DNA from: Silvanigrellaceae bacterium
GTDB taxonomy: Bacteria; Bdellovibrionota_B; Oligoflexia; Silvanigrellales; Silvanigrellaceae
Assembly (NCBI GenBank): GCA_049423385.1
Contig: JBMSQQ010000024.1
Coordinates: forward strand, 1 to 39,682
Direction of reading: 5' to 3'
Length of the DNA stretch: 39,682 nucleotides
Positions 6,276-38,099 of this stretch are shown one piece after another. The notes beneath the pieces are model-generated. The model was not told where the DNA came from. It made no database searches and saw only the letters and a list, made by a program, of their open reading frames with translations. Each line of letters begins with the position of its first letter. The first letter of the stretch is position 1. The position numbers were made by a program, and so were the translations under genes.

Positions 6276-9200
6276 CAAGAAATTTGGAGATTGTCGCCGC
6301 GGATGTTGTTGACCAGGCAATCTTGACTCCTTCAAAACTTCATTTGGTTCTGACGGCCACCGACAACGATGCGATGTTGGTTGAAGAGTGCTTGCGGCAG
6401 ATGTCGGGCAATCATTTTGATCATGATGACATCGTCGGATTGCCGTCTTTTTTGCAAACCGGGGTTTACCGGTTTGAATCCGCGCGCAGACTCCTGGCGC
6501 GTCGCCTCGGAGCTCTGCATTTGTTGCGCAGTCGACCCGTGCGTTGCCTCGTTCTTTCCTCGACTGCATTGGTGCGAATCGTACCTTCAACGACCTGGAT
6601 GGCCAGCAACACGCTCGAACTTGTCACCGGTGAAGAACAAGATCAGGATGCTGTTCTCGAGCGGCTCTATTCCCTGGGCTATCAGTCTGTTCAGCGTGTC
6701 GAAGAAGTTGGCGAATGTGCGGTGCGCGGCGGTATTCTGGATTTTTGGACGCCAGGAGAAAGGCACCCGGTTCGATGCGAGTTCTTTTCCGATTCGCTCG
6801 AAAAAATTCGGCTCTTTCGTCCTGCCGATCAGCGTTCATTCGAAACCCGCGAAAAAGTGTGTGTCCTTCCCGCAAGGGAATTTGTCTGGCCGCAAGAGAA
6901 CGCGGTGGGACAGTGGATAGAAAAATTCAACAAGGCGATTCTGGCCCAAGGGTTGCAAGGCGGCATTCGCAACGATCTTCTCGAGAATCTTCGAGGTTCA
7001 ATTCCGTTTCCGGGTATCGACGACCTTTGTTCGCTGTTTGCCGACACTGATTTTGTTTCTCCGCTCGATTATCTTGAATCCACTTTCTCCGATGAGCGAA
7101 GCGGTATTCAGCTTCATGTTTTGCATGAGCCCCAGCGACTGAGTGGTGGTTTGAAAGAGACCATTGATATCTACGAAAGTGCATGGCAGGCCGGGTACGG
7201 CAAGTCGTACATGACAATCAAGCCCGAAAAATTGTTTCCTGCGGCCGCTGCTTTTCCGGAATGGCTGGGCTCAAACATTGGGGCAACAGCAGCTGTTTCG
7301 AAATTTGCACTTCCGGCAATCGTTGAGGCGAGGATTGCCGAGGCATCAAAGAAAAAATTCTCTGAACGCTTGCGGATCGTCAGCAGCCTGTTTCAAGACA
7401 ATCCAGAATTGGGTTGCATTTTCACGAGTCCTACCCAGGATGCAAGTCTCGAATTTGTTGCCCTTTTGAATGCAAATATTGAGGAATCTGCAAAGAAACT
7501 GAAAACTGAAGCGACCATTTCGCCTTTTTCAATTGCAGACTTCAACCGCAAACAAGCCTCGGAGCAGTCCAGCACCTGGACGACAAGGCTTGCAAAATTC
7601 GCCAATCCCTTTTTTGTTCCCGATACCTCGATGTTGGTTCTTCCTGAAGAATGGCTGCGTGGAGTCAGCAAGGATCACAGCATTGAGATTCATTCCGACG
7701 AGGACAGCCAACGCGCGTCGCGGGAGGCTGCAGAAACGCTCATCTCTGGTCAATTCGGTGATTTTGCCGAAGGTGACCTTGTGGTTCATGTTCAACATGG
7801 AATTGCCCGGTTTCGCGGGCTGACGACCATTCGCGTCATGGACATCTCTGGCGATTTTCTTGTCCTGGAATATGCAGGAAACGACAAGGTCTATGTTCCT
7901 GTTCACAAGTTGAACCTTGTCCAGCGTTACATCGGCTCCAGCAAGGCCGATGATACCCAGTTGGATTCCTTGAAGGGAACCCAATGGGAAAAAAGAAAGG
8001 CGCGTGCAAAAGAGGAAGCAGCCAAGGTTGCAAAGGAACTTCTCGAGCACCAGGCAAAGCGTGCAACAACTCCTGGACACGCCTACGCGCACATCGAGGA
8101 CAATTATCTGCTTTTTGAAGCGGCTTTTCCGTATGATGAAACACCAGATCAAATCAAGGCAACGCGCGAAATTCAGGCCGACATGTCTCGCCCAAAAGCA
8201 ATGGATCGCCTGCTCTGTGGAGACGTTGGCTTTGGTAAAACGGAAGTTGCCATGCGGGCTGCCTACCGTGCAGTTTTGGACGGGAAGCAAGTTTCCTGGC
8301 TTGTTCCGACAACTGTTCTGGCACACCAACATTACCGAAGTTTACAGGAGCGGTTTGGTCAGTTTGGAGTCAACATCGAGATCCTCGATCGGTCCTCCGG
8401 AGGCGCAGGCTCCTCCAAGGCTCTCAAGAAGCTTCAGGAAGGTGGAATTGATATTATCGTTGGAACCCATCGACTGTTGTCGCCGGACGTCAAGTTTCGC
8501 GACCTGGGATTGTTGATTGTCGATGAAGAGCAACGTTTTGGAGTTCTGCAAAAGGAAAAAATCAAGACAATATCTTATGGCATAGACGTGCTGACGATGA
8601 GTGCAACCCCGATTCCGCGGACATTACAGATGGCCATGATTGGCTTGCGTGAGTTGAGCCTTCTCACCACGCCGCCCAAAGCCAGACTTGCTGTCAAGAC
8701 CTTTGTCTGTCCTTTTGATGAGACCACGATCCGCGATGCCATCAAGTATGAATTGGCCCGTGCCGGTCAGATTTTCTTTGTCCACAACAAAGTCGACGAT
8801 CTCGCGTCTGTGGAAGTGTATCTCAAGAAGCTCGTACCCGAAGCACGCATCTGTATTGGTCATGGCAAAATGCCTCAAAAAGAACTCGACAAGACTGTCA
8901 TTGAGTTCATCGACCAGAAGTTTGATATTCTGCTTTGCACCACGATCATCGAGTCGGGCATCGACATGCCAAATGTGAACACCATCATCGTTCAGGACGC
9001 AGACCACTTTGGATTATCGCAGTTGTATCAGCTGCGTGGTCGCGTGGGTCGACGTTCCACACGAGGCTATGCTTATTTTATGATGAGCCCGACAGCCAAC
9101 GAAAAAGACGATGGCGTGAAGCGACTCGAGGTGCTGCGCGAGCATCAGGAGCTTGGCAGCGGTTTTGTCATAGCAAGTCAGGACCTCGAAATGAGGGGGG

Positions 9201-9838
9201 CCGGCAATATCATGGGCGACGACCAAAGCGGTCGCGTCACCGAGGTCGGTTTGGAAACGTATCTGCAAATGCTCGACGATGCGATAAGGTTGATTGGTGG
9301 ACGCAAGGTCCGTGTTCTTCCCGAAGCGGAAATACAGGTTCCCGTCGAGGCACAGATTCCCGAAGATTATGTGCAGAATGCGCGCGAGCGATTGCGATTG
9401 TATCGTCGGTTTTTCGGTGCGCGAAACGAAGACAATCTGGCCTCACTCACGGTGGAATGTGCCGACCGCTTTGGTCCGTTGCCCGAAACAGTTCAAAACC
9501 TGGCCGACATGGCCCGTATCCGGCGTTGGTTGATGAGCTTTGGCGGAATCGGCTTGAACGTCAGCGACGACTTCACCGAGGTCAAGATCAGTCCTGAAAT
9601 CCTGCAAGCGCGCGATGACCAGGATGCCGAGGCAATCATCAGACGGATTTTCGACGTCTGCAATCGCGAAGTGAAGGGTGTTCGACTCACACCTGATGGC
9701 AGATTGCTGCTACCCTTGAAAAAACGTCAGTTCCGTCCGGAATTCGGTATGACCGGAATGGTGGATTTGAAAAAGTATCTGACGTTGTTTGCGGGTGAAT
9801 CTTATGCCGGTTTGCATGTCCAAAAAATCAACTCATGA
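6272..9838 (+). CDS. mfd: Transcription-repair coupling factor
   Basis: UvrB-like [11 protein letters not shown] domain [66 protein letters not shown] and [13 protein letters not shown] overlap with the gpsA stop. Confidence 0.97.
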
Positions 9839-11291
9839 ATTTGCCAGTGTCAGTAGGTTCCTGACGCTCATTTGCGGATTGGCTGCGATTGCTTCCACGA
9901 GTCGTGCGCTGGCACAATCGTCGCCTCCGGAAAAAAGGGGAGGCAAGGGTGCGAATACGGTTAAAACCGACGATGCCAAGCTGCAACTCAAGATTAGAAA
10001 ACTGGAAGAGCTGATTGAGCAGGAAAATGTTTTCGAGGCATCCGAGCTACTGAAGTCACTTTCTGAAAAAACCATCAGTCAAAACAAAAGGCTTCTCGTC
10101 GCAAAAGCATTGGTGGCGAAGGGATTGTATCAGCTTGCCGAAGCTGAGGAACTGTTGAAAGCGGCGCTCAAAATTGATGCCGATGATGCTTCTGCACAAT
10201 TTGAAATGGCATTGATCTTAATGGAACGAAAAGAATGGAAGGATGCAGATGTCCTTCTTCGTCTTGCAGGTCAGTCAGAGCAACTCAAGGGTCAGAGGCG
10301 AGCCATGTTGCCGTACTATATGGGTGTGATTGCCTATGAGACGGGACGGCTTTTTGATGCACGCAGCAGCTTCACAACCATGACCTGGAACGAGTCGTTG
10401 GATGCTGCACTTCAACAGTCAGTCGGTGTTTTCATCTCGAGAATTTCACGTGAACGTCCGTGGACGATCGTTGCACCCCTTTCTTTGCAATATGACTCAA
10501 ATCCATTGGGATTGAACCGCGCAGCTCCACTTCCCGAAGGATATGCCCAAAGGCATGTGCTCAAGGTGATTGGTGGCCTTTTCGCGAACCTCGAGGGTGT
10601 GGGGGGCGACAAGGCCGGCGCTGGCCCCTTTGGATTGGGTCTTCGCTTGTTTGCTGTTCAAAATATTGAAAAGTCATTTTCCGGACTGAATGTTCAATTC
10701 ATCGAATCCGAGGCCAATTGGTCACGATTTCTTGGCAAAGAGACGGGTGTTTTCAAATCGGCGCTCATGGCCAACCTGATTCGGTTGGGAGGGCGTTCAT
10801 TGAGCACGGGTTTCTCCGTGAAGTTGAGCCTTGGTGCAAATGAATTGTCGATGATCCTTGATAGGGATCTTCAAAAGACGTCAACGAAAGACTCTTCGGT
10901 CTACCAGATTCGCTACGCCAGAGAGCAAGGACTTTACAGTCGAGGTGCGTTTTCCTTGTTTGTGCCTTTTGAGCTCGCAGCCAGACAGTCCGTTTCTTCC
11001 AGTTTGCGGGATCGAAAACTCGAATTTGCGTTGTCGCCGGGAATGGGTTGGACATTGAGCAGGCGAGCGAATCTCAAGGTCACGGAAAAATTCGCTTTGG
11101 AAAGATTTCTTACCGAAACTCAGTCCTCGTATACGCTCAATCGGATTTCATCGGGTTTGAATTTTTCCTATACAATCCAACCATATCTGATTCTCAGTTT
11201 GGGTGGTTCGTTCGATTGGGAGAAGAATATTCAATCCGCCTCTGTCACCCAGAAAAAGGTTGCGACAACAAGCTTGCTCGGAATTCTCTGA
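9804..11291 (+). CDS. Exported TPR protein with probable C-terminal outer-membrane beta-barrel (Slam/DUF560-like architecture)
   Basis: Signal peptide ending ALA-Q, TPR-like helices (GLYQLAEAEELLKAALKIDADDASAQFEMA; YYMGVIAYETG), then LQYDSN and alternating amphipathic strands. Start is 9804 or 9816. Confidence 0.6.
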   Translation: MPVCMSKKSTHEFASVSRFLTLICGLAAIASTSRALAQSSPPEKRGGKGANTVKTDDAKLQLKIRKLEELIEQENVFEASELLKSLSEKTISQNKRLLVAKALVAKGLYQLAEAEELLKAALKIDADDASAQFEMALILMERKEWKDADVLLRLAGQSEQLKGQRRAMLPYYMGVIAYETGRLFDARSSFTTMTWNESLDAALQQSVGVFISRISRERPWTIVAPLSLQYDSNPLGLNRAAPLPEGYAQRHVLKVIGGLFANLEGVGGDKAGAGPFGLGLRLFAVQNIEKSFSGLNVQFIESEANWSRFLGKETGVFKSALMANLIRLGGRSLSTGFSVKLSLGANELSMILDRDLQKTSTKDSSVYQIRYAREQGLYSRGAFSLFVPFELAARQSVSSSLRDRKLEFALSPGMGWTLSRRANLKVTEKFALERFLTETQSSYTLNRISSGLNFSYTIQPYLILSLGGSFDWEKNIQSASVTQKKVATTSLLGIL

Positions 11292-14950: not shown

Positions 14951-17786
14951 CCCTGCCGAGGTTGTGCAGGACGATGGATTCCAGTTCATCGATTCGAATG
15001 GGCAAGAGACTCATGGAGAAGCGTCGCTTCAAAAGACGCCAGCGGGTGAATCTGAGCAGGGCTTCCCACAGCAGGATGCGCACCCGATGCACGGTTCCGA
15101 CAGCCAAAAGCGCAATTGGCAGTTGCGCCTTTGTTTTCGAGGCCACTCTCACAAAACGCTGCTCGGCAAATTCACGTCGCAGTTCGAGTGACAACAGCAG
15201 TCGCCACAAAAAGCGTGCGTTCCAGCCGAGGCCTGACAATGGATTGTCCCACAATTGAGAAAATCTGAGCTGAAACAGCCTTCGGGCCGCAGTCTTGACT
15301 TCGCCAATCAAGCTCACCTCATTGACCGTGCGGTTGTGTGAGGGTTTGCTCCATGCCTCAACCGTGCGCCAATAGTCATCGAGGGATTTTCTTCTCAGTT
15401 GTTCCAGGCATTCGATGATTGCAAAATTACGCGCCAAGGATGCCAATTTCACGAATTCCTGCCTGTCCCTGAGCCAACCGGACGAGGGCAATTCAATGAT
15501 ATATCGAACTCTTGCGGGCCTGACTCCGTCGAGAATGGAAAGCTTCAGATCTGAAGATGTCAAAAGCGAGATTCCATCCGGTGTTTGCTTGAGGTTCGAA
15601 TGTTCCTCGGGTGACACCCGCTTGAATCTGATTTCACAAACTCCAGCGTTGCGGAGTTCTCCGAGCCTGAGCCCAAGTGTGCGGAGATCACGCTCGTCGA
15701 GTGTTGGGCCAATTTCGACTTCGGGTGAACGCTGGATGTGTTGAAAGACGATCGCCGTCGCAACTTTGAAGACCCTAAAAATTCCAACATCGAGAACTGT
15801 ATTGATGATGTCGCGCAGTCCAAAATACTTGCGAAGTTCAAGCGCGAATGAATTTCTGGCTGAGATTGAAGTCGCAGTGATTGCCAGTTGGGTCAAACCC
15901 CGCAGGGCCGCCTGGACCTCAATCCGCAGGTCCACGCTGTTCTCGGCGAGTATCCGAATGAAATCGGCCATGAAATGGGCAGTGCCGTGAGTGTATTCCT
16001 CCGCACTCATCAGTTTGCCAAGTTCGTCATAGAGTTTGTTGTTGTGGAGCGCATCCGGGTTTGAAACAAGCAAATAAAGTGTGTCGAGGACACCTCCAAT
16101 GTCGCGCAGCAAGAGTCGATAAAGCATGGACTTGAACTGTTCACGGGTGTCCTCTTCCCAAATGAAGCAAGGGTTCAAGTCGATCATCGAAACGGTCAGC
16201 GTGTTGTCATCCAGAAGAATATTCCCAGGATGAGGATCTGCCCAAACGATTCCCTTGTCGAAAAGAAGGCTCAGGTATGCAGTGATCAGGCGGTCGGCAA
16301 TTTCGCGGCGCTCGAGATATTTGGTTTGCACGCTGCGGGTTATCTTAGTGCCCGGCATGCGTTCCATGAAAAGGTACTTTGGGCTGGTCTGGAAATATTT
16401 TGGAACCACCACCTTGGAATCTTCGGGGAGAGAGGATCTGATGATGTCTGCATTTTCCTGTTCACGTCGGAAGTCGAGTTCGGCAGAGCACTGTCGAAAA
16501 TAATGCGTGATTCCCCTCAGCAGTGCATCACACATGCCTTTCAGTTCCTGCCTCAGCGATTCGCCCAGGGCCCGATCGCTTTCCAGCGAGGATTGAATAC
16601 TTCGGGCAATATGACTCAAATGAGAAGCCTGGATCTCGAGAAGTTAGTGAAGTCCTGGCCTTTGTATTTTGAAGAGCAATGTCTGAACTGAAAATTTCTC
16701 ACGACCCGAGTCATACAATTTGAGCTCGTAAATGGCCCCAACACTGGCAGCTGCAAAGTGCGGAACAGGCTGTTTGGGAATGACCAGGTAATTTTCCCAG
16801 TGGTCTTTGACTTCTGTCTGATTGAGGACACTCAGAAGATAGCCGAATGATTTTTCAACGCTTGGATAAACCCCGGCCGCCGCGTCCTGTGAGCTGCGCA
16901 ATTCCTTTGCCAGATTGGGTGGGCACATTTCTGCCAGCACTTGCGAGGTTTTAAGATAGAGTCCCCCCAGTTCCTGGATTGCAATTGAGAGCAGACGGCT
17001 GGGAGTCAGCTGATCCCGTGGAGTGCAGATTGTCGATATGAAAATATTCAGGCTCGATTCCGGTGGGACGAGATCCAAAACGTCATGCAGAAACGGAAGA
17101 ATAACTTTGCCCCTGGGGTCCGAGTTGAGCAGTTCTTGCAGACGCGGAAATGCAAACTGGTTGAATAGTCCTTTCATTAAACTGTCCGCAAATGCCGCGA
17201 GTGCAGTCCTGTCGTGTTCCGACAAACGAAACAGGGCAGCAAAGCACTGTTCGCGAATTTCCGGAAACAAAGCTGCGGCCCGATTCGAAACAACGGGTAA
17301 AAACCTCAGGATGTGACCGATTTTTCTGCCCGCAAGACCAAGTTCCTGCTCGAGCAATTCGATGTGAAAAAACAAGTGAATCAGACGGGGATTTTTCTCG
17401 ATCATCAAGGCTGTCGCACGAATTGCGGGGGAGAGCCGTTTTTTGACGAAATCCTCTGATTCCAGAAAGGAAAAGTCGGTGGAGGACCATTGATCAGCAA
17501 GGTGATGCAAAGTTCTTTCGAAATCTTGCACCAGGTCGTTGCCAGCCAGCGTTGCCAGAAACGCAATCCCGAGGCCACGGTCTTTGAGTCCTTCAATGGT
17601 TCGAGCTGGAATTTGCGGGTTTTGCGACAGCGTGATGAGTAGCGAGGAAATAAGTTTGGCAAAAAGCTCGGAGTTTTCGGAAACCTGGCGCGCGACGGGC
17701 TTGACCCAATTGAGGTCCATTTTCAGGAGGGCGGTTGATTTCCTGAATCTGCGTCGCTTGCGCTTTTTGTGATCCGAATTGGCCAT
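14898..17786 (-). pseudogene. ABC1/AarF/UbiB-family atypical kinase, interrupted by one in-frame TAA at 16646-16644
   Basis: ORFs 16644..17822 and 14898..16619 are in the same frame: ...FKIQRPGLH*LLEIQASHLSHIARS... The kinase motifs LGGLYLKTSQ, AAASVGAIY, FKIQRPG, ELDFRRE, MERMPG and WADPHPGN span the stop. Likely start is ATG 17786 (GGAG RBS). Confidence 0.8.
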
Positions 17787-18035
17787 GCTTCTCCGAACGC
17801 GGGTCGATCTCGCTTTGGTCATTGTTCAGGGTTGATTCGGATCAAATTCGAGCATTGTTCAGAGCAAGAATATTGACGACCTTGATACTCTTTCAACAAA
17901 AAAGTCGACTTGATGGAAGTAAGACATTGAAATCTTTTGAAAATCAAAACACTCCCCGCGGGTCAGAATTTACCGCGGAAAATTTAGCTTTAAATCTTGG
18001 CTTGCTGACCGAAGAGGGAGAGTGTAGGGTTGGTT

Positions 18036-21613: not shown

Positions 21614-23047
21614 ATGAGCGAAATCCTGAGCGAATCAAAACCAGAAGCATCATTTGATGACTACAAGTATGGTTTTCATGTTCCGGAAAATTACGTTTTC
21701 AAGGCAGCCAAATCGAAAGATGGGCTGACGCGCGAGATGGTCATCGAAATCTCCAGGTTCAAGCGTGAGCCTGAGTGGATGCTTGAGCGCCGCCTCAAGG
21801 CATTCGAAATATTCCAATCCAAGCCGATGCCGACTTGGGGCGATACAAAAGCCTTGAGTGAAATCGACTTCACCAACATTCACTATTTCGTTCGCCCCAC
21901 CGAAAGGGTTGGCACGAGTTGGGATGAAGTTCCGACGGAAATCAAAGACACGTTCGAGCGTTTGGGAATTCCTGAAGCTGAACGAAAATTTTTGGCCGGT
22001 GTGTCTGCTCAATTTGAGTCGGAAGTTGTTTACCACAGCATGCAAAAACGCCTCGAAGATCAGGGCGTGCTGTTTTTCGACATGGACACTGGCCTGCGCC
22101 AGTATCCAGAAATTGTCGAAAAGTATTTCGGCACCGTGATTCCCTCTGAGGACAACAAGTTCGCAGCGCTCAACACCGCTGTGTGGTCGGGTGGAAGTTT
22201 CATCTACGTGCCCAAGGGCGTGAAGGTCGATATTCCTTTGCAGGCCTATTTCCGTATCAACACAGAAAACATGGGTCAGTTCGAGCGCACGCTGATCATC
22301 GCAGACGAAGACTCCAGCGTTCACTACATCGAAGGATGCACAGCACCGGTTTATCGTTCCGACTCGTTGCACAGTGCGGTGGTCGAATTGATCGCCTTGA
22401 AGGGCGCCAAAATTCGTTACACGACCATTCAAAACTGGTCGAAAAACATTTTCAATCTGGTGACCAAGCGCGCCTACGCATACGAAGATGCGGTGGTCGA
22501 GTGGGTTGATGGCAATATCGGCTCCAAGCTGACCATGAAGTATCCTGCGGTGTACCTGATGGGTCCGCGCGCACGCGGCGAAATTCTTTCGGTCGCATTT
22601 GCTGGAAACGGCATGCACCAGGATGCTGGCTCGAAGATCGTCCATGCAGCGCCCTACACATCCAGCGTTGTGACGTCAAAATCCATTTCCAAAAGCGGCG
22701 GAATCACAACCTATCGGGGCCTTGTGAAGATTCCCAAGGGGATGGTCGGGTGCAAGAGCAAAGTTCAATGTGACGCTCTCCTGATGGATCGCGATTCGCG
22801 TTCCGACACCTATCCAACCATGGAAATTGAAGAGCGCGAGGGCGTCAACGTTGGACACGAGGCGAGTGTGAGCAAGGTTGGCGAAGATCAAATCTACTAC
22901 CTGACCAGCCGCGGATTCAGCGAACGCCAGGCAACACTCATGGTTGTGAATGGCTTTATTGAAGAATTCGTCAAGGAATTGCCCATGGAGTATGCGGTTG
23001 AATTGAACCGCCTGATTGAAATGGAAATGGACGGAGGAGTGGGCTGA
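21614..23047 (+). CDS. sufB: Fe-S cluster assembly protein SufB
   Basis: [49 protein letters not shown] and [14 protein letters not shown]. Confidence 0.98.
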
Positions 23048-25407: not shown

Positions 25408-28400
25408 TCAGGGTTTCCGTTTCAATTCAATCGTCGCTGCCCATGTATTGATGCCCGGTGATGATGGGGCTGCAATTGCGGTTGGACTTGTGGTCATGTC
25501 GGCTGAATCGGAAATGTTTGCAAAATATTGAACATCACGATGAAAGTATCCAGGCGCGGGTAATTGATAGCTATAACCGCTGCCTTTGCCAAGGATGCGC
25601 AGAGCCCAGCTCGTGTCGGGATTGTTGAACTCCACATAAGGAAATGTTGCCTGCACACTGGGATCGATGGACGATGCAGAAGCTCCAATGGTCGCGTTGG
25701 AGTAAACAAGAATTGAAAGTTGATCCGATCCATAGGCGGTGCTGCCGAATGGCGGAAGAGTTAAACTCGTCCCCGTTGCTATCTTCCATTGGATTTTTAT
25801 CAGGCTACCCCAGTTTGTGGACCCTGCTGAAAAGAGCACCGTGAATCCGGCGAAATCCTGAACAGGTCGACTATCCGCTGTACTTGAAATCACGACCAGC
25901 AGGTCGCCGACATTGTGCGCGGGTGCTGCGGTGCTGATTGTCGGAACCGTGGATTTCGTCATGCCGACGAACTTGATGGGATTCGCCGGCGGCGGACTTC
26001 CCGAGGTCAGGTTCCATTTGGTTGCAAGGTATCTTTCCAGATTTCCCCTGTTGTCGGTCGTGAGGGGTGGAGAAAAGAGCAGCAGTTCCGAAATCTCGCC
26101 TTTCCAGCCGCGGCCCTGGCTCGTTTGCAATCGGTCGATGCCCACCGTGATTCCGTTGGCCGAGGTGATCGGATTTGAAGATTCGGTCACTGTTCTCATC
26201 AATGACAAGGAATTGATTTCTGGAAAAAGGCTGTCGACCCTGTTGGTGTCATTGAACGCATTCAGAAAGAGATAAACAAAAGAAGTAACGTTGAATCCGG
26301 CTGAGCTGCCGAACGCCGTCATCCATGATGAACTCAAGTTGTTTCTCGGCGAGATGAGGCCTTCGTTGTTGGTGAAGTTGGTGCCGGTGGGGCTCGCAAA
26401 ACGACCAACCGCATAAATCTCGCTGGTGGTGACACTGCCCGTGTGCTCCAGGAATTTGTTGTTGTCGGTTGTTGGCCAACGCAGGGCATTGCGGCCGTTG
26501 AAAGCGCTGCGTCCAATCCCCGTGCGGTTTGCCGGATTCGTTTGCGCCAGGTCGCGGCGCCAGATGGATTTGTCGCTCCAACCCACGACGGAATCGCTCG
26601 TTCCCGCAGGAGAATCGAGATGCACCGTGGAAGCATCGCTGGCGTCATACCATGCAACCGGAACCACGTTGCGCGGGGTAAAGTCACCGGGTGTGTGGAA
26701 TTGCCCGGGCGAGAGGGCATGGAATTCAGAAACCGCAAGCACTTCCGGGCTGCCGGAGGTGCTCTTGATTCTCAGATAACGGGCATGAAAGTCGACATCG
26801 AATTTGTAGATTCCAAATTCTGGCAGCGTGCCCGTCGTGAAAGCTGTTTTCCATGCGAAACCGTCGAGGGAATACTCAACCAGTTTGTTTTCCGTCAAGG
26901 ATTTTTGGTCGAGAGGTGCTGTCGCAGTTGAGCGAGATGTTCCAATCACCACGCGGTCGATCAGGTAGTTCCTTTTCAGATCCATCTTGATCCAGCCACC
27001 TGTCTCCGCATTGGTGGCTGCAACGCCTCCCAAGATGCTCGCATCGGTCAAAAAAGCATTCTGGACAGCCGTGGAATCCGGATGTGTGCTTGACTGCGAG
27101 TAGGTCGGTCCAAGCAGGCTTGGAATGAAAGAAGGTGGCGCGTCGTCGGGAAAAGGCGTGCTGGGGGGAGTGAAGTTTGTCACATACCGGGCGACGTTCA
27201 TCGTCAGTCTCAGCTCATCCACGAACCCGCCGTCCAGCCCCAAATGGCTCCGTGCAAATTGCAGCGTTCCGTTGTTGGTGAAGCAATCGCTGCAGTTCGC
27301 GGACTTCACCAGTGACCCGTTCAGGAAAAGCCGGAGCGTGCCACTTTGCCTGCTGAGTGCCACATGGTGCCATGTGTTGAGTGCAACTGTCGGACTTGTC
27401 GACAAACCAACCGGGTTGAGCACATTCGTGTCGGATGTGTTGGTTGTGGTGACGCCCATCAGGGAAGTACCGTCCTGGAGTGTGAACCGGGTGTTTGATT
27501 TGGTTGTGTCCGGATTCCCGGATGTATAAAACAGCATCTTTGGACCATAGGAAAGATCAACGGTGCGATACCACCATCCTTCCATGGTGAAATCAACACC
27601 TGAGGCAATGTTCACGCCGCTGACAGAAACATAGCCATTTTTGATCTGCAGGGATGTGTTGCCGAATCTGCTGATCGAGGACGTGTGTCCTGTGGTGCTG
27701 GAATTCGTCAGGGTTCGCTTGAATTTCGATGAGTCCGTATAGGTTGTTGAGCCCTGCGCACCATCAAGATGTGCCAACAGCACAACATTGTCGAAATATT
27801 CATCCTCAACCACGTCAATGACATTCACCGTCATCGCTTTTTCAAAATACACTCCCGCTTCATCCGTGGCGCGGACACGGACGCTGAAGACGTCCTGCAA
27901 TTCAAAATCAAGAGAGAGGTTTGCCTGCAATTTTTTGCTGGAGATATTGAAGGACGCGTTGTCTGAATCCCCATCTCCTGCAACCAGAGTGAAGGTGATG
28001 TCGGCAGCAGTGGAATCCATGTCCACTGCGCTGAGTGCTCCCACCACCGCATTGGTTCCTGCGTTCTCCCAAACGGTGCTCCGGGACAGGACGATGTTGG
28101 TTGGCGGAAAGCTTGTCGGTGCATTCGCTTCATTGACTGTAATCAGGAAGCCTTTGACGAATTGCGAACCGTCGGTGTCGGTTGCAGTGATGATAATTTC
28201 ATAAGACGACTTGATTGATTTCTGGAAAACGGCAGCCGACCTCAGGGTTGTTCCATTTATGCTGAATGACGACGCATCGGGGCCACTCAAGGTGTAGGTG
28301 ACCGGACCCGGCAGATTGGGGTCCGGATAATCGGGATCGACGGAGCGGAGAGTTCCGACTGTCGTTCCGACGGGCTGATTTTCGTTTATAATCGATGAAG

Positions 28401-30426
28401 ACAGCACGATATCTGTGGCTGGCTCACCCAGATTGACAACGCTGATGGTGAAGCTTTTCAGGAAAGACAAACCGGCTGCGTCGGTGGTGCGGATCGAGAT
28501 TGAATACGAGGTCTTGCTCTCGTAATTCACGATGCTGTTGGTTCGCAGCGTGTTGCCCACGATCGTGAAAGCCGATGAGTCGGGTCCTCCCAGAAGGAGA
28601 GTCTGGGTATCGCCAATATCCTGGTCTGCGATTGTTATCGTTGCAACAGTGGAACCCAGTGCAACGTTTTCGCTGACGCTTGATTGCGACAGCGTGATGT
28701 TCGTCGGGCTTTCGTTGAGATTCGTGGCATTGACAACAAATATTTTGGTGTACTCCCTGAGCTCCTGATCCCGTACTGTGATGGTGATCGAATAATTCTG
28801 CTTGTTTTCGAAGTTGATCAACTTGCTGGTGACGAGCAGGTTATACGAGACGGCAAAATAGGAACCATCCGCGCCACCCACCGAATAGGTGAAGACGCTG
28901 TTCGGATCCCGGGCGATTGCCCCCAATGTTCCCACCAGCGATCCGACGGAGATGATCGACGTGTGCTCTGCAATCGTGGAGTTGCTCAGGGTGATGTCCG
29001 TGGGCGCATAATTCGCCACGTCCAGAGTGAAACTCCTGCTTGCAGTGAGTGATCCATCGGTCACAATGACACTGATTTGGCTGATACCGGCAACTCCCGG
29101 TTTGGGATACATCAGCAATTTGCAATTTGGAAAAGTTCCACCCAAAACGATGTTCTGGTTTGGAAGCAGTGCACTGTTGTCCGAGCGCGCAGAAACAGAT
29201 GAGCCGCAGGAGAGAGCGCTTTCGGTGTCCTGAGCAACCAGTGCAACCTCGATCGATGATGTGTTGATCGGCACCGTCTTGTTGGCAAGCGCAGCGAGTG
29301 TTGGTGCCGTGTTGTTGAACTTGATTCTAAAAACGGTTGAGAGTTTCACGGCAGTGGCTGATTCACCGGCAATGCGGACAAACACATCAGAGCCGTTGTT
29401 GAAAGGAAATTGATTTCGGAGGAAGCCACAGGTTGCACCGTCGGTTGATTTCATCGGCCCGCTTGCCGCAGTGCGAAATGCGGAGTCCGAACAGTCCTGA
29501 TAATCGCTGACAAAATTTATTCCAGTGGCCGATTCATTTGCCGAAGGATATGTTCCAGCAAGGCCATCCCAGGCTGACATCGTGGATTCCGAAAATGAAT
29601 AGGCGATCCGCACATCGGCTGAGTCTGCAAATGCGTTCTGCCATGCAAATCTGACCGTTGTGTCCGTGCTGACGTTGGTTGCCAGGGTGTAGACGTCCAC
29701 CGTCTTGGCAGCAGGCTCGGTGTTGTTGGGCAGCGAAACTGGAGTGATCGTCACTTCTTCCACTGTCGTCGAGGTGGGAGCTCCGCCGGTTGTTGTGGCA
29801 ACGCGGTTTTCTGGAACCTGAAGTGCCAATTTTCTATCGAGCGCAACCGGCTCAGCAACCGAGCCGTCTGCTGACGGAGGACTCGGTTGAGCAGGGTAAT
29901 TGGGTAGCGCCGTGAGTCCTTCATCAACCCGTTTCTGGCTGACAGCCTGTGCAACGTCGCCGGGAAGACTGACTGATGAATTGATGACGCGGTTCGCGTC
30001 CTGAATCCTGAAATCCAGGTTGGATGCCCTGATTTTGCTGACCGGGAGCGAGACCTTGCCTGCATCGTTTGACTCTGTCTGAAACAAAACCCCGGACGCA
30101 GACAAATTGAGTGCAAAAGTCAAAAGGTTCAAGGCAGAAGGAGTGCTTGTGGTGGCTTCCTCGCCCAGCAAATCAACCTTCGCGCGTGCGATGGGGGTGC
30201 CGTCATCCCGGCGCAATTCAGCAACCAGATAACTGCCCAGAACAGGAACCGGAGGAGTCACCCTGCCTGAGCCACCGCCCGTGGTGTCGGTTCCAACGGC
30301 CGGAGTGCCACTCAATGGAGGTACTCCCTGGCCGCCGTCCGCGCCAGCGCGCTGCTTGCATCCTTCTGAACCCAACAATGCGAAAAACGCAGCTGCCTTC
30401 AGAAAGGTTTGAATTGAGTTTTTCAT
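25408..30426 (-). CDS. 1672-aa surface lipoprotein/adhesin with cadherin-like repeats, LamG-like and discoidin-like domains
   Basis: Signal ending at Cys23. Four cadherin-like repeats (PTDITLSNSTIAE, PTNITLSQSSVSEN, ATDIVLSSSIINEN, PTNIVLSRSTVWEN), LamG (FTMEGW, WHHVAL, VDELRL), discoidin (WIKMDL...YSLDG...ARYLRI) and a second LamG-like domain (WYDASD...GEISELL...ERYLATKW). Confidence 0.85.
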   Translation of the reverse strand: MKNSIQTFLKAAAFFALLGSEGCKQRAGADGGQGVPPLSGTPAVGTDTTGGGSGRVTPPVPVLGSYLVAELRRDDGTPIARAKVDLLGEEATTSTPSALNLLTFALNLSASGVLFQTESNDAGKVSLPVSKIRASNLDFRIQDANRVINSSVSLPGDVAQAVSQKRVDEGLTALPNYPAQPSPPSADGSVAEPVALDRKLALQVPENRVATTTGGAPTSTTVEEVTITPVSLPNNTEPAAKTVDVYTLATNVSTDTTVRFAWQNAFADSADVRIAYSFSESTMSAWDGLAGTYPSANESATGINFVSDYQDCSDSAFRTAASGPMKSTDGATCGFLRNQFPFNNGSDVFVRIAGESATAVKLSTVFRIKFNNTAPTLAALANKTVPINTSSIEVALVAQDTESALSCGSSVSARSDNSALLPNQNIVLGGTFPNCKLLMYPKPGVAGISQISVIVTDGSLTASRSFTLDVANYAPTDITLSNSTIAEHTSIISVGSLVGTLGAIARDPNSVFTYSVGGADGSYFAVSYNLLVTSKLINFENKQNYSITITVRDQELREYTKIFVVNATNLNESPTNITLSQSSVSENVALGSTVATITIADQDIGDTQTLLLGGPDSSAFTIVGNTLRTNSIVNYESKTSYSISIRTTDAAGLSFLKSFTISVVNLGEPATDIVLSSSIINENQPVGTTVGTLRSVDPDYPDPNLPGPVTYTLSGPDASSFSINGTTLRSAAVFQKSIKSSYEIIITATDTDGSQFVKGFLITVNEANAPTSFPPTNIVLSRSTVWENAGTNAVVGALSAVDMDSTAADITFTLVAGDGDSDNASFNISSKKLQANLSLDFELQDVFSVRVRATDEAGVYFEKAMTVNVIDVVEDEYFDNVVLLAHLDGAQGSTTYTDSSKFKRTLTNSSTTGHTSSISRFGNTSLQIKNGYVSVSGVNIASGVDFTMEGWWYRTVDLSYGPKMLFYTSGNPDTTKSNTRFTLQDGTSLMGVTTTNTSDTNVLNPVGLSTSPTVALNTWHHVALSRQSGTLRLFLNGSLVKSANCSDCFTNNGTLQFARSHLGLDGGFVDELRLTMNVARYVTNFTPPSTPFPDDAPPSFIPSLLGPTYSQSSTHPDSTAVQNAFLTDASILGGVAATNAETGGWIKMDLKRNYLIDRVVIGTSRSTATAPLDQKSLTENKLVEYSLDGFAWKTAFTTGTLPEFGIYKFDVDFHARYLRIKSTSGSPEVLAVSEFHALSPGQFHTPGDFTPRNVVPVAWYDASDASTVHLDSPAGTSDSVVGWSDKSIWRRDLAQTNPANRTGIGRSAFNGRNALRWPTTDNNKFLEHTGSVTTSEIYAVGRFASPTGTNFTNNEGLISPRNNLSSSWMTAFGSSAGFNVTSFVYLFLNAFNDTNRVDSLFPEINSLSLMRTVTESSNPITSANGITVGIDRLQTSQGRGWKGEISELLLFSPPLTTDNRGNLERYLATKWNLTSGSPPPANPIKFVGMTKSTVPTISTAAPAHNVGDLLVVISSTADSRPVQDFAGFTVLFSAGSTNWGSLIKIQWKIATGTSLTLPPFGSTAYGSDQLSILVYSNATIGASASSIDPSVQATFPYVEFNNPDTSWALRILGKGSGYSYQLPAPGYFHRDVQYFANISDSADMTTSPTAIAAPSSPGINTWAATIELKRKP

Positions 30427-33646: not shown

Positions 33647-34024
33647 TTATTTGGACAGGAGAAATTTCAGTCCCGCCGAGACCAGGACAATACCAAATAT
33701 TTTCTTGAGTGTGTCTTGTGGCAATTGAAGAGCCAGGGTGGCTCCAAGATAGGCCCCCAACGCCATTGCCAGAGCGATATAAAGGGATGAGCGGATCTCC
33801 AGGTTTCCAGCATTGTAATACTTGATGGCTGCAAAAATTCCGACTGGCAGAATGAGTGCTCCGATGGAGGTGCCCTGGGCTGAAATTTGCGTCATACCGC
33901 CAATCATCACGAGAAGCGGCACGATCACGAGTCCGCCGCCAATTCCTACCAATCCGCTAAGTATTCCTGCGGCGAGCCCAATACCCAACAGCGTCCAGAC
34001 TGATATCACCCGGGATCCTCCCAC
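33647..34024 (-). CDS. Half-size TauE/SafE (TSUP) family membrane protein
   Basis: GLAAGILSGLVGIGGGLVIVP and AQGTS motifs. About 4 TM segments in 125 aa. Confidence 0.88.
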   Translation of the reverse strand: MGGSRVISVWTLLGIGLAAGILSGLVGIGGGLVIVPLLVMIGGMTQISAQGTSIGALILPVGIFAAIKYYNAGNLEIRSSLYIALAMALGAYLGATLALQLPQDTLKKIFGIVLVSAGLKFLLSK

Positions 34025-34699
34025 TTATTTTTCTTTGGAAACGGTTGTCGATTTTTGCTCATGCAAGACTACCAGATGAAGCAATGCTTCCAAGTAGGCT
34101 TCTGATTTTTCAACAGTCTCGCCTCCACAGTAAATTCCGTGTTGGGAAAGCATGAATAGAACCGGACCTTTTTTTTCCGAGGGTTCAGCAAACTGCTTTG
34201 CTTCGATGTCATTGGCGAGTTGGCGCATGTCCTGGTTGTTTTCATAAACCTTGAGAACCAGCGGTGTCGTGTGGCCTTGAGTTCCCAGGGCTTTGAGCAG
34301 TTCGTGTCCCGCAATTTTAACAGAGGGAGGTCTGAGGTTTTCAAGCTCCGGGGCATGGCAATGAAGAATGCACCCCACCCATGGACACTTTTCATAGACC
34401 AGCGCGTGAAGCAAAGTTTCATCGCTCGCCTTTGGCGCTATTGGGGCACATGCGTTTCCTGCCAGGTCCACAAGCAAGAAGTCGCCTGGAGTAAGATCGC
34501 GCTTGTGTTTGCCCGATCTGGAAATCAGAAATGATGATGGGTCGCGTCGCAAACTGAAATTGCTGCTGGTGGCTGGTATTGCGTGGCGATTGTCGAGTCG
34601 TGCAGCAACGTCGCACAGATTCCCCAACTTGATTTGTTCAAACAATGAAAGTGCAATCTGACCACTGGCGTCGAATCGGTATTTGCGTTCACTGCGCAT
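34025..34699 (-). CDS. mtnB: Methylthioribulose-1-phosphate dehydratase (class II aldolase fold)
   Basis: ATSSNFS, SRSGKHK, SDETLLH, LHCH, GHELLKAL, ENNQDM and HGIY. ATG 34699 overlaps the end of the RLP gene, in an operon with mtnA. Confidence 0.87.
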   Translation of the reverse strand: MRSERKYRFDASGQIALSLFEQIKLGNLCDVAARLDNRHAIPATSSNFSLRRDPSSFLISRSGKHKRDLTPGDFLLVDLAGNACAPIAPKASDETLLHALVYEKCPWVGCILHCHAPELENLRPPSVKIAGHELLKALGTQGHTTPLVLKVYENNQDMRQLANDIEAKQFAEPSEKKGPVLFMLSQHGIYCGGETVEKSEAYLEALLHLVVLHEQKSTTVSKEK

Positions 34700-35867
34700 C
34701 GGAACAAGCCTCCAGGCGGTTGAGGAATTCCCTCGCAGAATCGGCAACCGATTTACCGCTGGCGAAAATTGCGGTTCCCGCATTCAAAATAAAATTCTGT
34801 CCAAAATCTGCGCAAGCCATTTCAACATGTTCGGGCTTTATTCCGGCACTCGGCACGGGCGTTGTCGAAAGCACTTTCGCATCCAGTTCCTTGGTGCACT
34901 CGTGAGCGATTTCGATTGTCGTTGGCTTCGGCAATCCAATTTTTCCGTAGGGGCTGGGAAACAGGCTCAGGTCGGCGCCAGCTGCACGCATCAAACTTCC
35001 CAGTGCAACCCGCGGCGCGATGGCGTCCGTCGATGAGCCCAGTCCAAATGCTCCCGCCAGGGCTGGATGTGCGACGAGCGGAATTCGGGTGACCTCCCGC
35101 AAACTTTGCAGGGCCTCGAGTCCAGCCGTCCAGACATTCACGAGCAATGCATCCGCTCCGGCATCTTGCAATGATTTGCTCCAACCAGCGAGGTTGGCGC
35201 AAGCCTGCACATTGATCGGAGCGTGAGCCACGTAGAGTGTTTTGAGATGTTCTTTTTGTTTTCTCTCTGCAACTTTTTCAACGCGCTTGAGTGTGTCGTT
35301 GAGGCTTTCATCGTGGCGGATTTCATCGTCCTTCACCAAATGAACGCCTGCGTGAGCCACTTCCGTGTACAAATTGGCGAGCGAATCTGCGCCCATTGCC
35401 ACGTTGGGTTTGAGGATTCCCATCAACAATGGACGGCCAGCGTTTGCACCCGTTTGCTCGCGCAGCATGTCGAGGGAAACCTTCGGACCGGAAAGTCCAC
35501 CCTCAGAAAAACAGCGCGGGTCAAAGTCCAGTCCTTCCAGGCAAACCCCTTTATAAAAACTCATTTTTCCAAAAACAAGTGTCGTCAGCCAGGCAAGCCT
35601 TCCGTGCCAAAGCTGTCTCGGGAATGCGATTGTCGCGCGGAGGAAGTGTTCATCTTCGCCTATGGAGACAATCTTTGCGACCTTTTCCTGGAGAACCTGT
35701 TTTTCAACAAAACGTTCATCCCATGCACCAATGGTTTGGCCAATCGCAATCTCTTCAAAGATTTCGGCTGTGTGGATTTTTTTATCCACCCGGTAGGTGG
35801 CATATGCATGTGCTTCATTGTTGGATGGCGAAACAAGGATGGCTTTGTTTTTGGCTGCGTAACTCAT
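34689..35867 (-). CDS. mtnW: RuBisCO-like protein (form IV), 2,3-diketo-5-methylthiopentyl-1-phosphate enolase type
   Basis: IAIGQTIGAW, VFGKMS, GPK, GILKP, LVKDDE, VAHPALAGA, LFPSPYG, VPSAGI and LNAG. Lies between mtnA and mtnB. Confidence 0.85.
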   Translation of the reverse strand: MSYAAKNKAILVSPSNNEAHAYATYRVDKKIHTAEIFEEIAIGQTIGAWDERFVEKQVLQEKVAKIVSIGEDEHFLRATIAFPRQLWHGRLAWLTTLVFGKMSFYKGVCLEGLDFDPRCFSEGGLSGPKVSLDMLREQTGANAGRPLLMGILKPNVAMGADSLANLYTEVAHAGVHLVKDDEIRHDESLNDTLKRVEKVAERKQKEHLKTLYVAHAPINVQACANLAGWSKSLQDAGADALLVNVWTAGLEALQSLREVTRIPLVAHPALAGAFGLGSSTDAIAPRVALGSLMRAAGADLSLFPSPYGKIGLPKPTTIEIAHECTKELDAKVLSTTPVPSAGIKPEHVEMACADFGQNFILNAGTAIFASGKSVADSAREFLNRLEACSDAQ

Positions 35868-36976
35868 TTTCCGGCAACACCTTTCAAAAAACCGGGCAAG
35901 TTGAATCGGTGCTGCCCTTGTTGGGGAGTCACAACCCCAAGTTCAGTGACGATCCCGCTGATCAATTCTGCTGGCGTGACGTCAAAGGACGGATTCCAGA
36001 CCCCGATTCCTTCCGCGGCGAGCCGTTGTCCGAAGATATGGGTCAGTTCATTCGCAGGGCGTTGTTCGATGTGAATGTCACCGCCCGTGGCCTTGCTGAC
36101 GTCGATCGATGTGAGCGGAGCGGCAACGTAAAAAGGGACTCCATGATGCTTTGCCGCAATGGCGAGCTGATATGTGCCGATTTTGTTGGCCGTGTCGCCG
36201 TTGGCAACAACCCGATCGGCGCCCACGACAACAGCATCAATATTTTCCTGTTTCATCAAAAATGAGGCCATCGAATCCGTGATCAGCGTTGAGGGAATCT
36301 GTTCAAAAACAAGTTCAAACGCCGTGAGTCGTGCGCCCTGGTTGTAGGGTCTGGTTTCCGTGGCGTAGGCATGCGCCAACTGTCCGCGATCATGAAGCGC
36401 CCGGATGATTCCCAGGGCGGTGCCGTATCCAACTGTGGCAAGACTGCCTGTATTGCAGTGCGTGAGGATTTTGAGACTCGTCTTGCCTTTGAAAAGATCT
36501 GCCCCGTGCGAACCGATGGCCCGATTGTCCGAGATGTCTTTTTCAAGCATACCTTCGGCAAAATTCATCAGCGTTGAGGCCAGTGATTGAATCGACGTTG
36601 TTCCTTCGCCGGAATGCGATTGCGACTTGTTGATGATGTGCTTGATGCGATCGATCGCTTCAAACAGATTCACTGCCGTGGGTCGACTGCTGCCAAGCAA
36701 TTCAAGCCGTTCGTTCAGCATTCGGGTGAACATTGTCAGGTCTGCCGATTTTTCGACAATGCTTGGAAGTTCCACGGCAAGGCTCAGTGCTGCCGTGACG
36801 GCAATCGCCGGAGCACCACGAACCTGCATCGATTTTATTGCGTCTGCGGCCTGTGCGCAGTTTGCAATCGTGATGAATTCACTGCTGTGTGGCAGTTTCA
36901 ATTGATCGAGAATGCTCAGCGAGCCGCGAGAGTAGCGAATGGCCTCGAGTCGCGGTGTGCCTTTGGTCGTGTTCAT
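35864..36976 (-). CDS. mtnA: S-methyl-5-thioribose-1-phosphate isomerase
   Basis: [62 protein letters not shown] and [11 protein letters not shown] 36976 overlaps the upstream stop. Confidence 0.96.
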   Translation of the reverse strand: [370 protein letters not shown]

Positions 36977-37986
36977 TTGGTGAGGCTTCCTTTGTTGAAG
37001 TAGGCTTGAATGAGTTTGGCCATTGCGAAATCCTTCTCGGTCACACCCCAGCGAGGCTCGTGTGTCACCAGTGAAATTTCGATGGAAGTGAAATCCCGGA
37101 GCAAGAAACTGGTGTGATGATCGCAAATCTCGTGTGCATCATGCAACCAGTTCATTCTTTCAACGGCCTCGGCATGGGTTTTGAAGTTGAACGTCGCCGA
37201 CAGACAAAAACCATGTGAGTCGCGATCCACGCTCCATGAAGAGAGTGCCTCACCCGCATTTTTCACTTGTGGACGCGGGTCATCCATCAGGGTTCTGCTG
37301 GCATTTTGCACGTCGATGAAGAGCGCATGTGGCCTGGCAAAGCGTAGAGTGGTTTCGCGCATGATTGCTTCTTCTGGAAGGATTCCGGCAGTCCGACAGC
37401 ATTCCGTGATGTCTGTCAAATATTGACCTGCCCGGGTTTTGGGGTTGGGCAACTCAATTTGTTTATGGATTTCTGTCACGTATTTGAGACGGACAAGGAA
37501 CGGTGCAATCGCAATGTCGATGGCATTCAATTCATTTCCACCAAAAAAACGATGACCCTGAGCAGACAACATTTCGTCCAGCCAGGCCCACGCAGTCGCA
37601 AGGCGTTTGGCGGCTGCGTTCAGGCTGTTGGTGTTGCCGTTGGAATAAATGGCTTGTTGAAGTGCTGAAAGCAGATTGCTGTTTGCGGTTTCCCGGAGAA
37701 CTTTTGTCTGGGCAATTTGGCGCGGAGTGGTGCCGTAGATTTTGGGTCCCTTGGCCTCAAGACTGTCCAGGAATTCCATAATCACCAGACTCTCGTGAAA
37801 ACCTTGGCCAGTTTCAAATTCAAGCGTTGGTACACTTCCGGAGGGATTGATTTGCAACATTCCTGCTGGAGGTTTGTTGAGGTCGATTTCAATTGATTGG
37901 ATTTGTAGTTTGTTGATTTGTCGCACGTGGCAAGCCAAAAGGACCCTGTGAACGAAGGGGCAGGCTGGAATCATGTACAATTTCAC
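36973..37986 (-). CDS. Fusion protein: Cys-type (omega-like, CPF) glutathione S-transferase + pterin-4a-carbinolamine dehydratase-like domain
   Basis: N-terminal ACPFVHRV, INPSGSVPTL, HESLVIMEFLD and FFGG..LNAIDIAIAPFL. C-terminal W...TFNFKTHAEA...EICDHHT...LVTHE..GVTEKDFAMAKLI. GTG 37986 follows AAGGAG. Confidence 0.82.
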   Translation of the reverse strand: MKLYMIPACPFVHRVLLACHVRQINKLQIQSIEIDLNKPPAGMLQINPSGSVPTLEFETGQGFHESLVIMEFLDSLEAKGPKIYGTTPRQIAQTKVLRETANSNLLSALQQAIYSNGNTNSLNAAAKRLATAWAWLDEMLSAQGHRFFGGNELNAIDIAIAPFLVRLKYVTEIHKQIELPNPKTRAGQYLTDITECCRTAGILPEEAIMRETTLRFARPHALFIDVQNASRTLMDDPRPQVKNAGEALSSWSVDRDSHGFCLSATFNFKTHAEAVERMNWLHDAHEICDHHTSFLLRDFTSIEISLVTHEPRWGVTEKDFAMAKLIQAYFNKGSLTK

Positions 37987-38099
37987 GATGGCAACTCCTT
38001 GCACGGGGCGTCAGTGGATCGTCGTGTTGGCGTGGAAAGCCTCCGGTTTTATGCGCCCGAGCCGAAGACGTTACGAGACACAGTGCGGGGGCGCAACCC

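Follow-up and report, generated by a model that had tools for sequence, protein, structure and literature searches.

An MRI1-type methylthioribose-1-phosphate isomerase gene in the bacterial family Silvanigrellaceae points to an ancient gene exchange with early eukaryotes

S-methyl-5-thioribose-1-phosphate isomerase, MtnA in bacteria and MRI1 in eukaryotes, is a housekeeping sulfur-recycling enzyme that is found across eukaryotes; in Bacillus subtilis its gene belongs to a set of salvage genes (mtnK, mtnA, mtnB, mtnW, mtnX and mtnD). Eukaryote-like genes are known from bacteria that live with eukaryotes, the effectors of Legionella being an example. Here we analyze an mtnA gene in a member of the Silvanigrellaceae (Bdellovibrionota_B; Oligoflexia). 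The window, that is, the whole stretch of DNA that was analyzed, is an entire contig of 39,682 bp (JBMSQQ010000024.1, assembly GCA_049423385.1) from a metagenome-assembled genome (MAG) of 3.47 Mb in 183 contigs, which is 90.6% complete with 1.78% contamination. An initial annotation, made from the sequence alone, had proposed that the product of this gene is eukaryotic, MRI1-like, rather than typically bacterial. In the full text of the literature that was searched, eukaryote-like MtnA in these bacteria is not mentioned. The relevant passages of a review of the pathway describe human MRI1 as highly similar to a widespread enzyme and contain nothing further on this point (PMC6302742); those of a study of the Tetrahymena MtnBD fusion present phylogenies for MtnB and MtnD but not for MtnA (PMC3698126); and the words 'methionine' and 'methylthio' are absent from the main text of the Spirobacillus genome paper (PMC12321486).

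The gene is a single unbroken open reading frame (ORF) whose translation consists of 370 aa followed by a stop codon and contains all five strings that the initial annotation had quoted from it, namely a 17-residue stretch (positions 10-26), LSLAVEL (64-70) and stretches of 13 (143-155), 23 (206-228) and 10 residues (320-329). The TIGR00512 profile matches the protein over its full length and above the cut-off (474.6 bits against 279; profile positions 1-334 of 335), and PF01008 matches with 272.8 bits. Among all solved structures, the top match is human MRI1 (4LDQ; 390 bits, E 7e-116, residues 10-353), followed at a distance by Thermotoga MtnA (295 bits), the Leishmania protein 2A0U, deposited as 'initiation factor 2B' (293 bits), B. 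subtilis MtnA (265 bits) and two archaeal homologues (256 and 254 bits). Given the score and E-value of the human match and the 55% identity to macaque MRI1 (193/350), chance resemblance is not an issue. This ranking bears out the proposed eukaryotic affinity, and the alignment to 4LDQ also confirms the human MRI1 strings that the initial annotation had given. Cys174 (in THCNTG) and Asp254 (in GADR), which we take to be the catalytic pair on the basis of studies of the B. subtilis and human enzymes, are invariant in an alignment of 19 sequences and match the same residues of 4LDQ. The gene product thus looks like a working MtnA and is predicted to be an active isomerase. The longest ORF over the gene begins with a TTG codon at 37126 (35864-37126 (-), 420 aa), a start that would entail an overlap of about 150 nt with the upstream gene; the ATG at 36976 is the likely start because it fits the alignments to relatives.

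Phylogenetic analysis of MtnA/MRI1 places the Silvanigrellaceae and all eukaryotes in one exclusive, strongly supported clan. In a FastTree overview of 346 sequences, all sequences of the family fall inside the group that holds all eukaryotes, except that from one genome, G018, which is sister to this group (support 0.952). Posterior mean site frequency (PMSF) trees were obtained by quick IQ-TREE searches under LG+C20+F+G4 for 91, 110 and 71 sequences, with Shimodaira-Hasegawa-like approximate likelihood ratio test (SH-aLRT) values as the only support measure; the clan received SH-aLRT 100, 100 and 99, respectively, and is set apart by a branch of 0.43-0.63 substitutions per site. In a tree of 44 sequences and 360 columns (LG+F+G4), ordinary bacteria form a clan with 99.8/100 (SH-aLRT/ultrafast bootstrap, UFBoot), and the split between bacteria plus G018 on the one side and eukaryotes plus the rest of the family on the other has 98.2/100. 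These trees contain no archaeal MtnA. All other Oligoflexia that were included are found in the bacterial part of the trees and the family never is; thus, the nesting among ordinary bacterial MtnA that would have spoken against the initial annotation did not occur, the family grouping with eukaryotes at SH-aLRT 99-100 and UFBoot 100. Ten diagnostic alignment columns distinguish eukaryotes and the core genera of the family, taken together, from other bacteria, and the eukaryote and core-family consensus sequences differ in one column only.

The MRI1-type gene is an old trait of the entire Silvanigrellaceae rather than the result of a recent event in one genome. Among 41 relatives, it is present in 12 of 12 other genomes of the genus (68-84% identity) and in other genera of the family (52-61%), with a single mtnA copy per genome, including the host genome. 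In a survey of 116 genomes of the phylum that are at least 80% complete, in which the 27 genomes of the family and 16 other families were searched, matches of this type were detected in 24 of the 27 family genomes (52-84% identity); the mtnA matches in the 16 other families reach 50% identity at most. Motif counts come from a sample of a scan across 185,579 species genomes and hold among the matches listed. The exact 17-residue motif, which ends in [FY]EL and is also present in the eukaryote rows of the 19-sequence alignment and in the window's protein, occurs there in 23 of 28 distinct family proteins and in none of the 103 other bacterial proteins (0/26 from other Oligoflexia, 0/77 from other phyla), so that the signature did not prove widespread in bacteria within this sample; a second scan pattern, ANGDTANK, is common in bacteria. 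Of the 77 other-phylum MtnA proteins, 60 matched the motif expression and 17 did not, and 47 of the 60 read DETRP-x-L-QG...TAWEL, in agreement with the bacterial form DETRPxxQGARLTAWEL that the initial annotation had given.

Among 5.8 billion proteins, the matches with 62-83% identity are metagenome proteins or are labelled 'bacterium', and between 54 and 62%, Silvanigrella, Fluviispira and a Silvanigrellales MAG are mixed with choanoflagellates, Capsaspora, vertebrates, insects, echinoderms and Balamuthia; the best matches beyond relatives from the family are choanoflagellates, Capsaspora, vertebrates and insects at 54-60%. An exhaustive HMMER search of 1.84 billion cluster representatives returned one representative at 62% and the next ones at 49-58%; 26 of these were looked up, and all 17 that carry an organism name are eukaryotes (among them Naegleria, Diospyros, Ascosphaera, Umbelopsis, Zancudomyces, Mastigamoeba, Schizosaccharomyces, Protomyces, nematodes and a bird). 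When Naegleria MRI1 is the query, the family proteins, including that of the window, come right after the closest Naegleria relatives and stand among cnidarians, other animals (insects), Diplonema, plants and chytrids. MRI1 is present in each eukaryote supergroup that could be named here, namely Discoba, Amoebozoa, Holozoa, Fungi and plants. A closer relationship of eukaryotes to the other Oligoflexia by plain similarity was considered and rejected: eukaryotic MRI1 shows 42-46% identity to bacteria of many phyla, other Oligoflexia included.

The genomic setting of the gene is bacterial. As the initial annotation had stated, it is intron-free and overlaps both neighbors: 4-nt ATGA overlaps join the stop codon of the upstream gene to the mtnA start and the mtnA stop codon to the start of the downstream gene, and the same contig encodes tuf, mfd, sufS, sufB and sufD. 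The downstream gene, for a RuBisCO-like protein (RLP), directly follows mtnA in 24 of 24 family loci, and a gene for an MtnB-like protein follows the RLP gene in 22 of them, the remaining two (L004 and L013) ending inside the RLP gene. In 10 loci from other families of the class, neither an RLP nor an MtnB-like gene was found near mtnA (0/10).

We infer an ancient interdomain transfer of this gene between the Silvanigrellaceae lineage and early eukaryotes, and put forward its direction, above all, with reserve. The initial annotation had offered two readings, a eukaryote-to-bacterium transfer with replacement inside the operon and a bacterial lineage that is sister to eukaryotic MRI1; the data support this pair but do not settle the choice between the two. 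We rank first, tentatively and at somewhat less than even odds, the reading that an early eukaryote gave mtnA to the ancestor of the family. Under this scenario, an early eukaryote would have donated its MRI1 gene to the ancestor of the Silvanigrellaceae, where the acquired gene would have replaced the resident Oligoflexia-type mtnA and come to sit beside the bacterial RLP and mtnB-like genes, to be inherited vertically within the family since. A eukaryotic donor is favored because a wide range of eukaryotes against a single bacterial family is the classical donor pattern, because the best tree under the C20 model nests the core family in eukaryotes next to Discoba, because only one column separates the two consensus sequences, and because eukaryotes are no closer to the other Oligoflexia than to other phyla. 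The Daphnia pathogens and the isolates from human infections that the family contains, according to titles and abstracts, provide the contact with eukaryotes that would give an opportunity for such a transfer.

A number of observations weigh against this direction and carry the reverse reading, which we consider possible and somewhat less probable, namely that a bacterium of the Silvanigrellaceae lineage supplied eukaryotes with MRI1 before the time of their last common ancestor, and that the family keeps the donor-type gene in its native cluster, vertically inherited from an Oligoflexia ancestor. MRI1 would then derive, quite possibly, from this lineage and not from the archaeal host or the mitochondrial ancestor, with eukaryotes branching within the diversity of the family. 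The swap of a bacterial gene for a eukaryotic one inside a cluster is a demanding event, and the mtnA-RLP-mtnB-like cluster is kept in the 24 family loci with one mtnA per genome. G018 MtnA branches below all eukaryotes in the 44-sequence tree (UFBoot 100), and its best 120 database matches are all of the eukaryote type, with 48-56% identity to eukaryotes and the family alike. The backbone within the clan has UFBoot values of 6-48, so that no eukaryotic donor lineage can be named. In a tree of the conserved part of the housekeeping protein Mfd, the family is monophyletic (100) on a stem that is also long (0.76), so that vertical descent is enough to account for a long stem in mtnA. At the position where other bacteria have the W of the TA-x-EL motif, 20 of 26 other Oligoflexia have F or Y, against 2 of the 60 other bacteria that matched the motif expression, among the matches listed; W is present in 51 of those 60. 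Most metabolic genes of early eukaryotes are of bacterial origin, which also counts for this direction.

The approximately unbiased (AU) tests point the same way. They were run on the same 44 sequences, with IQ-TREE constraint searches, for sets of four and of six trees under LG+F+G4 and LG+C20+F+G4; LG+F+G4 served as the model in the constraint searches, and the stopping rule was shortened for some of them, so that p-values of constrained trees may be somewhat too low. A single clade of all family members is rejected at 5% (p 0.035 and, under C20, 0.020 with four trees; 0.008 and 0.001 with six), whereas a single clade of all eukaryotes is not (0.19 and 0.32; 0.088 and 0.057), which makes the bacterium-to-eukaryote direction the sole one-transfer scenario that these tests do not reject. 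When both groups are constrained to be clades, the p-values are 3e-4 and 0.002 with four trees and 3e-4 and 5e-5 with six. In the tree constrained for eukaryote monophyly, eukaryotes emerge within the family, after G018, G013 and genus g3. Two further hypotheses, in which G018 and G013 are left free, belong to the six-tree set only: a clade of the core genera (0.48 and, under C20, 0.76) and separate clades of core genera and eukaryotes (0.021 and 0.054). The best of the six trees under LG+C20+F+G4 is the one with monophyletic core genera inside eukaryotes, next to Discoba; the rejection of the family clade rests on the two divergent sequences, G018 and G013.

Hints of a tie between the clan and the other Oligoflexia are weak and mixed. 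The other Oligoflexia are sister to the clan in the 91-sequence PMSF tree (SH-aLRT 86); the 44-sequence tree unites the other phyla in a clan (41.7/82), leaving Oligoflexia adjoining eukaryotes plus the family; an interim topology, without support values, from a 78-sequence search puts Oligoflexia near the clan, behind two long-branched sequences; and five columns are common to eukaryotes and Oligoflexia against one the opposite way. However, the 110-sequence PMSF tree does not resolve the place of the clan next to Oligoflexia, and the tie is invisible in raw similarity. Support for transfer from bacterium to eukaryote comes from the AU tests, the position of G018, the conservation of the cluster and these hints. 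Against it stand the confinement of the MRI1 type to one bacterial family as opposed to all eukaryote supergroups, the marginal acceptance of the eukaryote clade in the six-tree test (p 0.057), and the requirement that, with eukaryotes nested in the crown of a single family, this family be older than the last eukaryotic common ancestor. The nesting moreover depends on G018 and G013. G018 is a fragmented MAG (83% complete, 1060 contigs) whose MtnA has a long branch, is 51% identical to the core family, 49% to eukaryotes and 46% to bacteria, and shows 5 of the 10 clan-diagnostic columns; no branch in the clan is longer than that of G013 MtnA, whose composition deviates in every PMSF run. The Mfd tree puts G013 at the base of the family with a support of only 60 and groups G018 weakly with genus g1 and genome G017 (support 39), so that an early divergence of G018 within the family is not demonstrated, and long-branch attraction may explain why it is basal in the mtnA tree.

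That the family is monophyletic in no MtnA tree could also mean that the core genera, G013 and G018 each acquired, or reacquired, the gene from different eukaryotes. G013 groups with fungi in the 44-sequence tree (SH-aLRT 90.6, UFBoot 70), and G018 adjoins an amoebozoan at the base of the clan, in the 44-sequence and the constrained trees alike, its top named match being Stenamoeba (55% identity). We regard such multiple transfers as improbable, given that the position of mtnA upstream of the RLP and mtnB-like genes is constant in the 24 loci, those of G013 and G018 included, that three independent insertions at one site are hard to envisage, and that two long branches, one of them with deviant composition, are a classical setting for long-branch attraction. 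Still less likely, in our view, is the absence of any transfer, whereby the family MtnA would be a vertically inherited bacterial enzyme that is MRI1-like through slow evolution or convergence: the bacterial gene order, the single copy per genome and some character states common with other Oligoflexia are compatible with it, but the clan holds at 99-100 across 0.43-0.63 substitutions per site under site-homogeneous and site-heterogeneous models alike, ten columns define it and one separates its two parts, convergence over an entire enzyme of 350 residues is not credible, and even with a vertical family copy the closeness of eukaryotes would still call for a transfer. Eukaryotic contamination or a chimeric assembly or bin, which the status of the host genome as a MAG of many contigs could suggest, is the least plausible explanation and can in practice be dismissed: translational coupling ties mtnA to its bacterial neighbors, its contig of 39.7 kb also carries tuf, mfd and sufBCD-type genes, and the same arrangement recurs in 12 of 12 genomes of the genus and in near-complete genomes of the family, including one that encodes the protein assigned by NCBI to Silvanigrella aquatica. 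A donation by an early eukaryote to the ancestor of the Silvanigrellaceae keeps its place as our first, tentative choice, with the opposite direction as its one serious competitor.

Some observations on the divergent genomes and on the control genes stand apart from this argument. G018 MtnA was examined as a possible mosaic of Oligoflexia-type and eukaryote-type segments, an idea that was rejected because the protein is uniformly intermediate along its length. The mtnA-RLP-mtnB-like cluster of G018 (L101, contig C924, 3682-6625) is the most divergent in the family (MtnA 51-54%, RLP 40-43% identity), and among the 5.8 billion proteins its MtnA is without a close relative, the best other matches having 53-56% identity; either a deeper lineage or the mis-binning of a contig could explain this divergence. 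SufB (window 21614-23047) was dropped as a species marker because four genera carry a different type: the proteins of g1, g3 and g5 are 85-99% identical to that of the window and those of g2, g4, g7 and g8 43-45%, which suggests that two different SufB types exist within one family. The matches to mfd (orthologues of window 6260-9838) contain in-frame stops, namely one TGA each in G010, G003 and G007, which belong to the same genus, a TAA in G120 and a TAG in G118.

The features of the salvage cluster are listed in the table.

Features of the mtnA cluster in the 39,682-bp window
Feature	Coordinates	Strand	Remarks
Class II aldolase family protein, MtnB-like	34025..34783	-	longest ORF overlaps RLP gene; true start uncertain
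RuBisCO-like protein (RLP), MtnW/YkrW kind	34689..35867	-	directly downstream of mtnA, ATGA overlap
mtnA: S-methyl-5-thioribose-1-phosphate isomerase, eukaryotic MRI1 type, 370 aa (P0001)	35864..36976	-	profiles, 4LDQ match, trees
Glutathione S-transferase (GST)-like domains fused to pterin-4a-carbinolamine-dehydratase (PCD)-like domain (GST/PCD)	36973..38004	-	directly upstream of mtnA, ATGA overlap; PF13409, PF13417, PF13410 and PF01329

The RLP scores below the cut-offs of two curated models (NF007095, 229.5 bits against 409; a second model, 187.1 against 513.6), and its closest solved relatives are the 2,3-diketo-5-methylthiopentyl-1-phosphate (DK-MTP-1-P) enolases of B. subtilis and Geobacillus (2ZVI and 2OEK; 158 and 153 bits). 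Within the phylum, RLP genes occur in 25 of 27 family genomes and in one other family, of whose 20 genomes 13 have the gene; there the protein is 36-42% identical and is encoded on a contig different from that of mtnA where this was checked (G031 and G099). The MtnB-like protein matches NF006672 (138.4 bits; cut-off 226) and TIGR03328 (120.2; cut-off 137.05) below their cut-offs and PF00596 with 91 bits; its closest solved relative is Aquifex aq_1979, a putative MtnB (2IRP, 84 bits), and human APIP is not among its solved-structure matches at E 1e-3. In each of the 12 genomes of the genus, the GST/PCD gene is the immediate upstream neighbor of mtnA; in g3 it is found upstream at no more than about 100 bp, and in g5 at about 1 kb. 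The mtnB-like gene is directly followed, on its downstream side, by a 125-aa ORF (33647-34024 (-)) that matches the TauE/SafE sulfite exporter family over the C-terminal half only (profile positions 123-236 of 237); this could be a truncated gene or else a form of half the usual size. Elsewhere in the window, three ORFs, 25408-30426 (-) of 1672 aa, 9789-11291 (+) of 500 aa and 16644-17822 (-) of 392 aa, have no NCBIfam match at E 1e-10.

The host genome also encodes MTAP, on another contig (C19). This protein is closest to one deposited as RsfP and to archaeal enzymes, and a eukaryote-like character of the MTAP, MtnB-like and RLP genes was considered and rejected since their solved or nearest relatives are of bacterial or archaeal type; therefore, mtnA is the only eukaryote-like gene among them. 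In the proposed pathway, MTAP would make methylthioribose-1-phosphate, which MtnA would isomerize to methylthioribulose-1-phosphate, and this product would pass to the MtnB-like protein and the MtnW-like RLP. Profile searches with PF03079, TIGR01691 and TIGR03333 detected no acireductone dioxygenase (ARD, MtnD), MtnC or MtnX in the host genome and four other family genomes that are 94-98% complete (91-98% for all five), and MtnK was not found in the host genome; the last steps of the pathway therefore depart from the textbook scheme. A hydroxyacylglutathione hydrolase gene adjoins the MTAP gene (L147, contig C19, 2335-4100). Together with the GST/PCD fusion in the cluster, this neighbor suggests that the methylthio sugar might have a glutathione-dependent fate.

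For this enzyme, an entire bacterial family groups exclusively and with strong support with all eukaryotes, while sister families keep the ordinary bacterial MtnA, and the exchange between domains that this reflects is both clear-cut and old. With a transfer from eukaryote to bacterium, a core gene of a bacterial cluster was replaced by a eukaryotic one and kept through the radiation of a family. If it was from bacterium to eukaryote, a concrete living lineage, kin to predatory and host-associated bacteria, can be named as a donor to early eukaryotes; this would bear on the debate over non-mitochondrial bacterial contributions to the origin of eukaryotes, and the family would be a living relative of one bacterial contributor to the early eukaryotic genome.

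Compared with the described systems, the family MtnA is closest to eukaryotic MRI1 (4LDQ/4LDR), with which it shares motif stretches of 38 and 14 residues in identical or nearly identical form and membership of one clan. Unlike MRI1, it is encoded in a bacterial genome by an intron-free gene with 4-nt overlaps with its neighbors, and its partners are an RLP and a bacterial-type MtnB-like protein, an MtnC-type enolase-phosphatase and ARD not having been found in the five genomes. With ordinary bacterial MtnA, such as those of Thermotoga (1T9K) and B. subtilis (2YRF/2YVK), it has in common the TIGR00512 family, the expected reaction and the residues Cys174 and Asp254, but it is only 42-50% identical to the bacterial sequences compared, which carry DETRP-x-L-QG-RLTAWEL and lie across the best-supported branch of the tree. 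The B. subtilis salvage genes resemble the cluster of the family in bringing together mtnA, an MtnW-like RLP and an MtnB-like protein; they differ in that the RLP and MtnB-like protein of the family fall below the curated cut-offs, that a GST/PCD fusion is part of its cluster, and that MtnK was not found in the host genome nor MtnX, MtnC and ARD in the five family genomes. Finally, as with the eukaryote-like effectors of Legionella, a bacterial lineage with host-associated members encodes a protein whose nearest relatives are in eukaryotes; unlike those effectors, however, mtnA encodes a core metabolic enzyme, is the only copy in the genome, is fixed family-wide, and occupies a basal or near-basal place among eukaryotes instead of adjoining a particular group of hosts.

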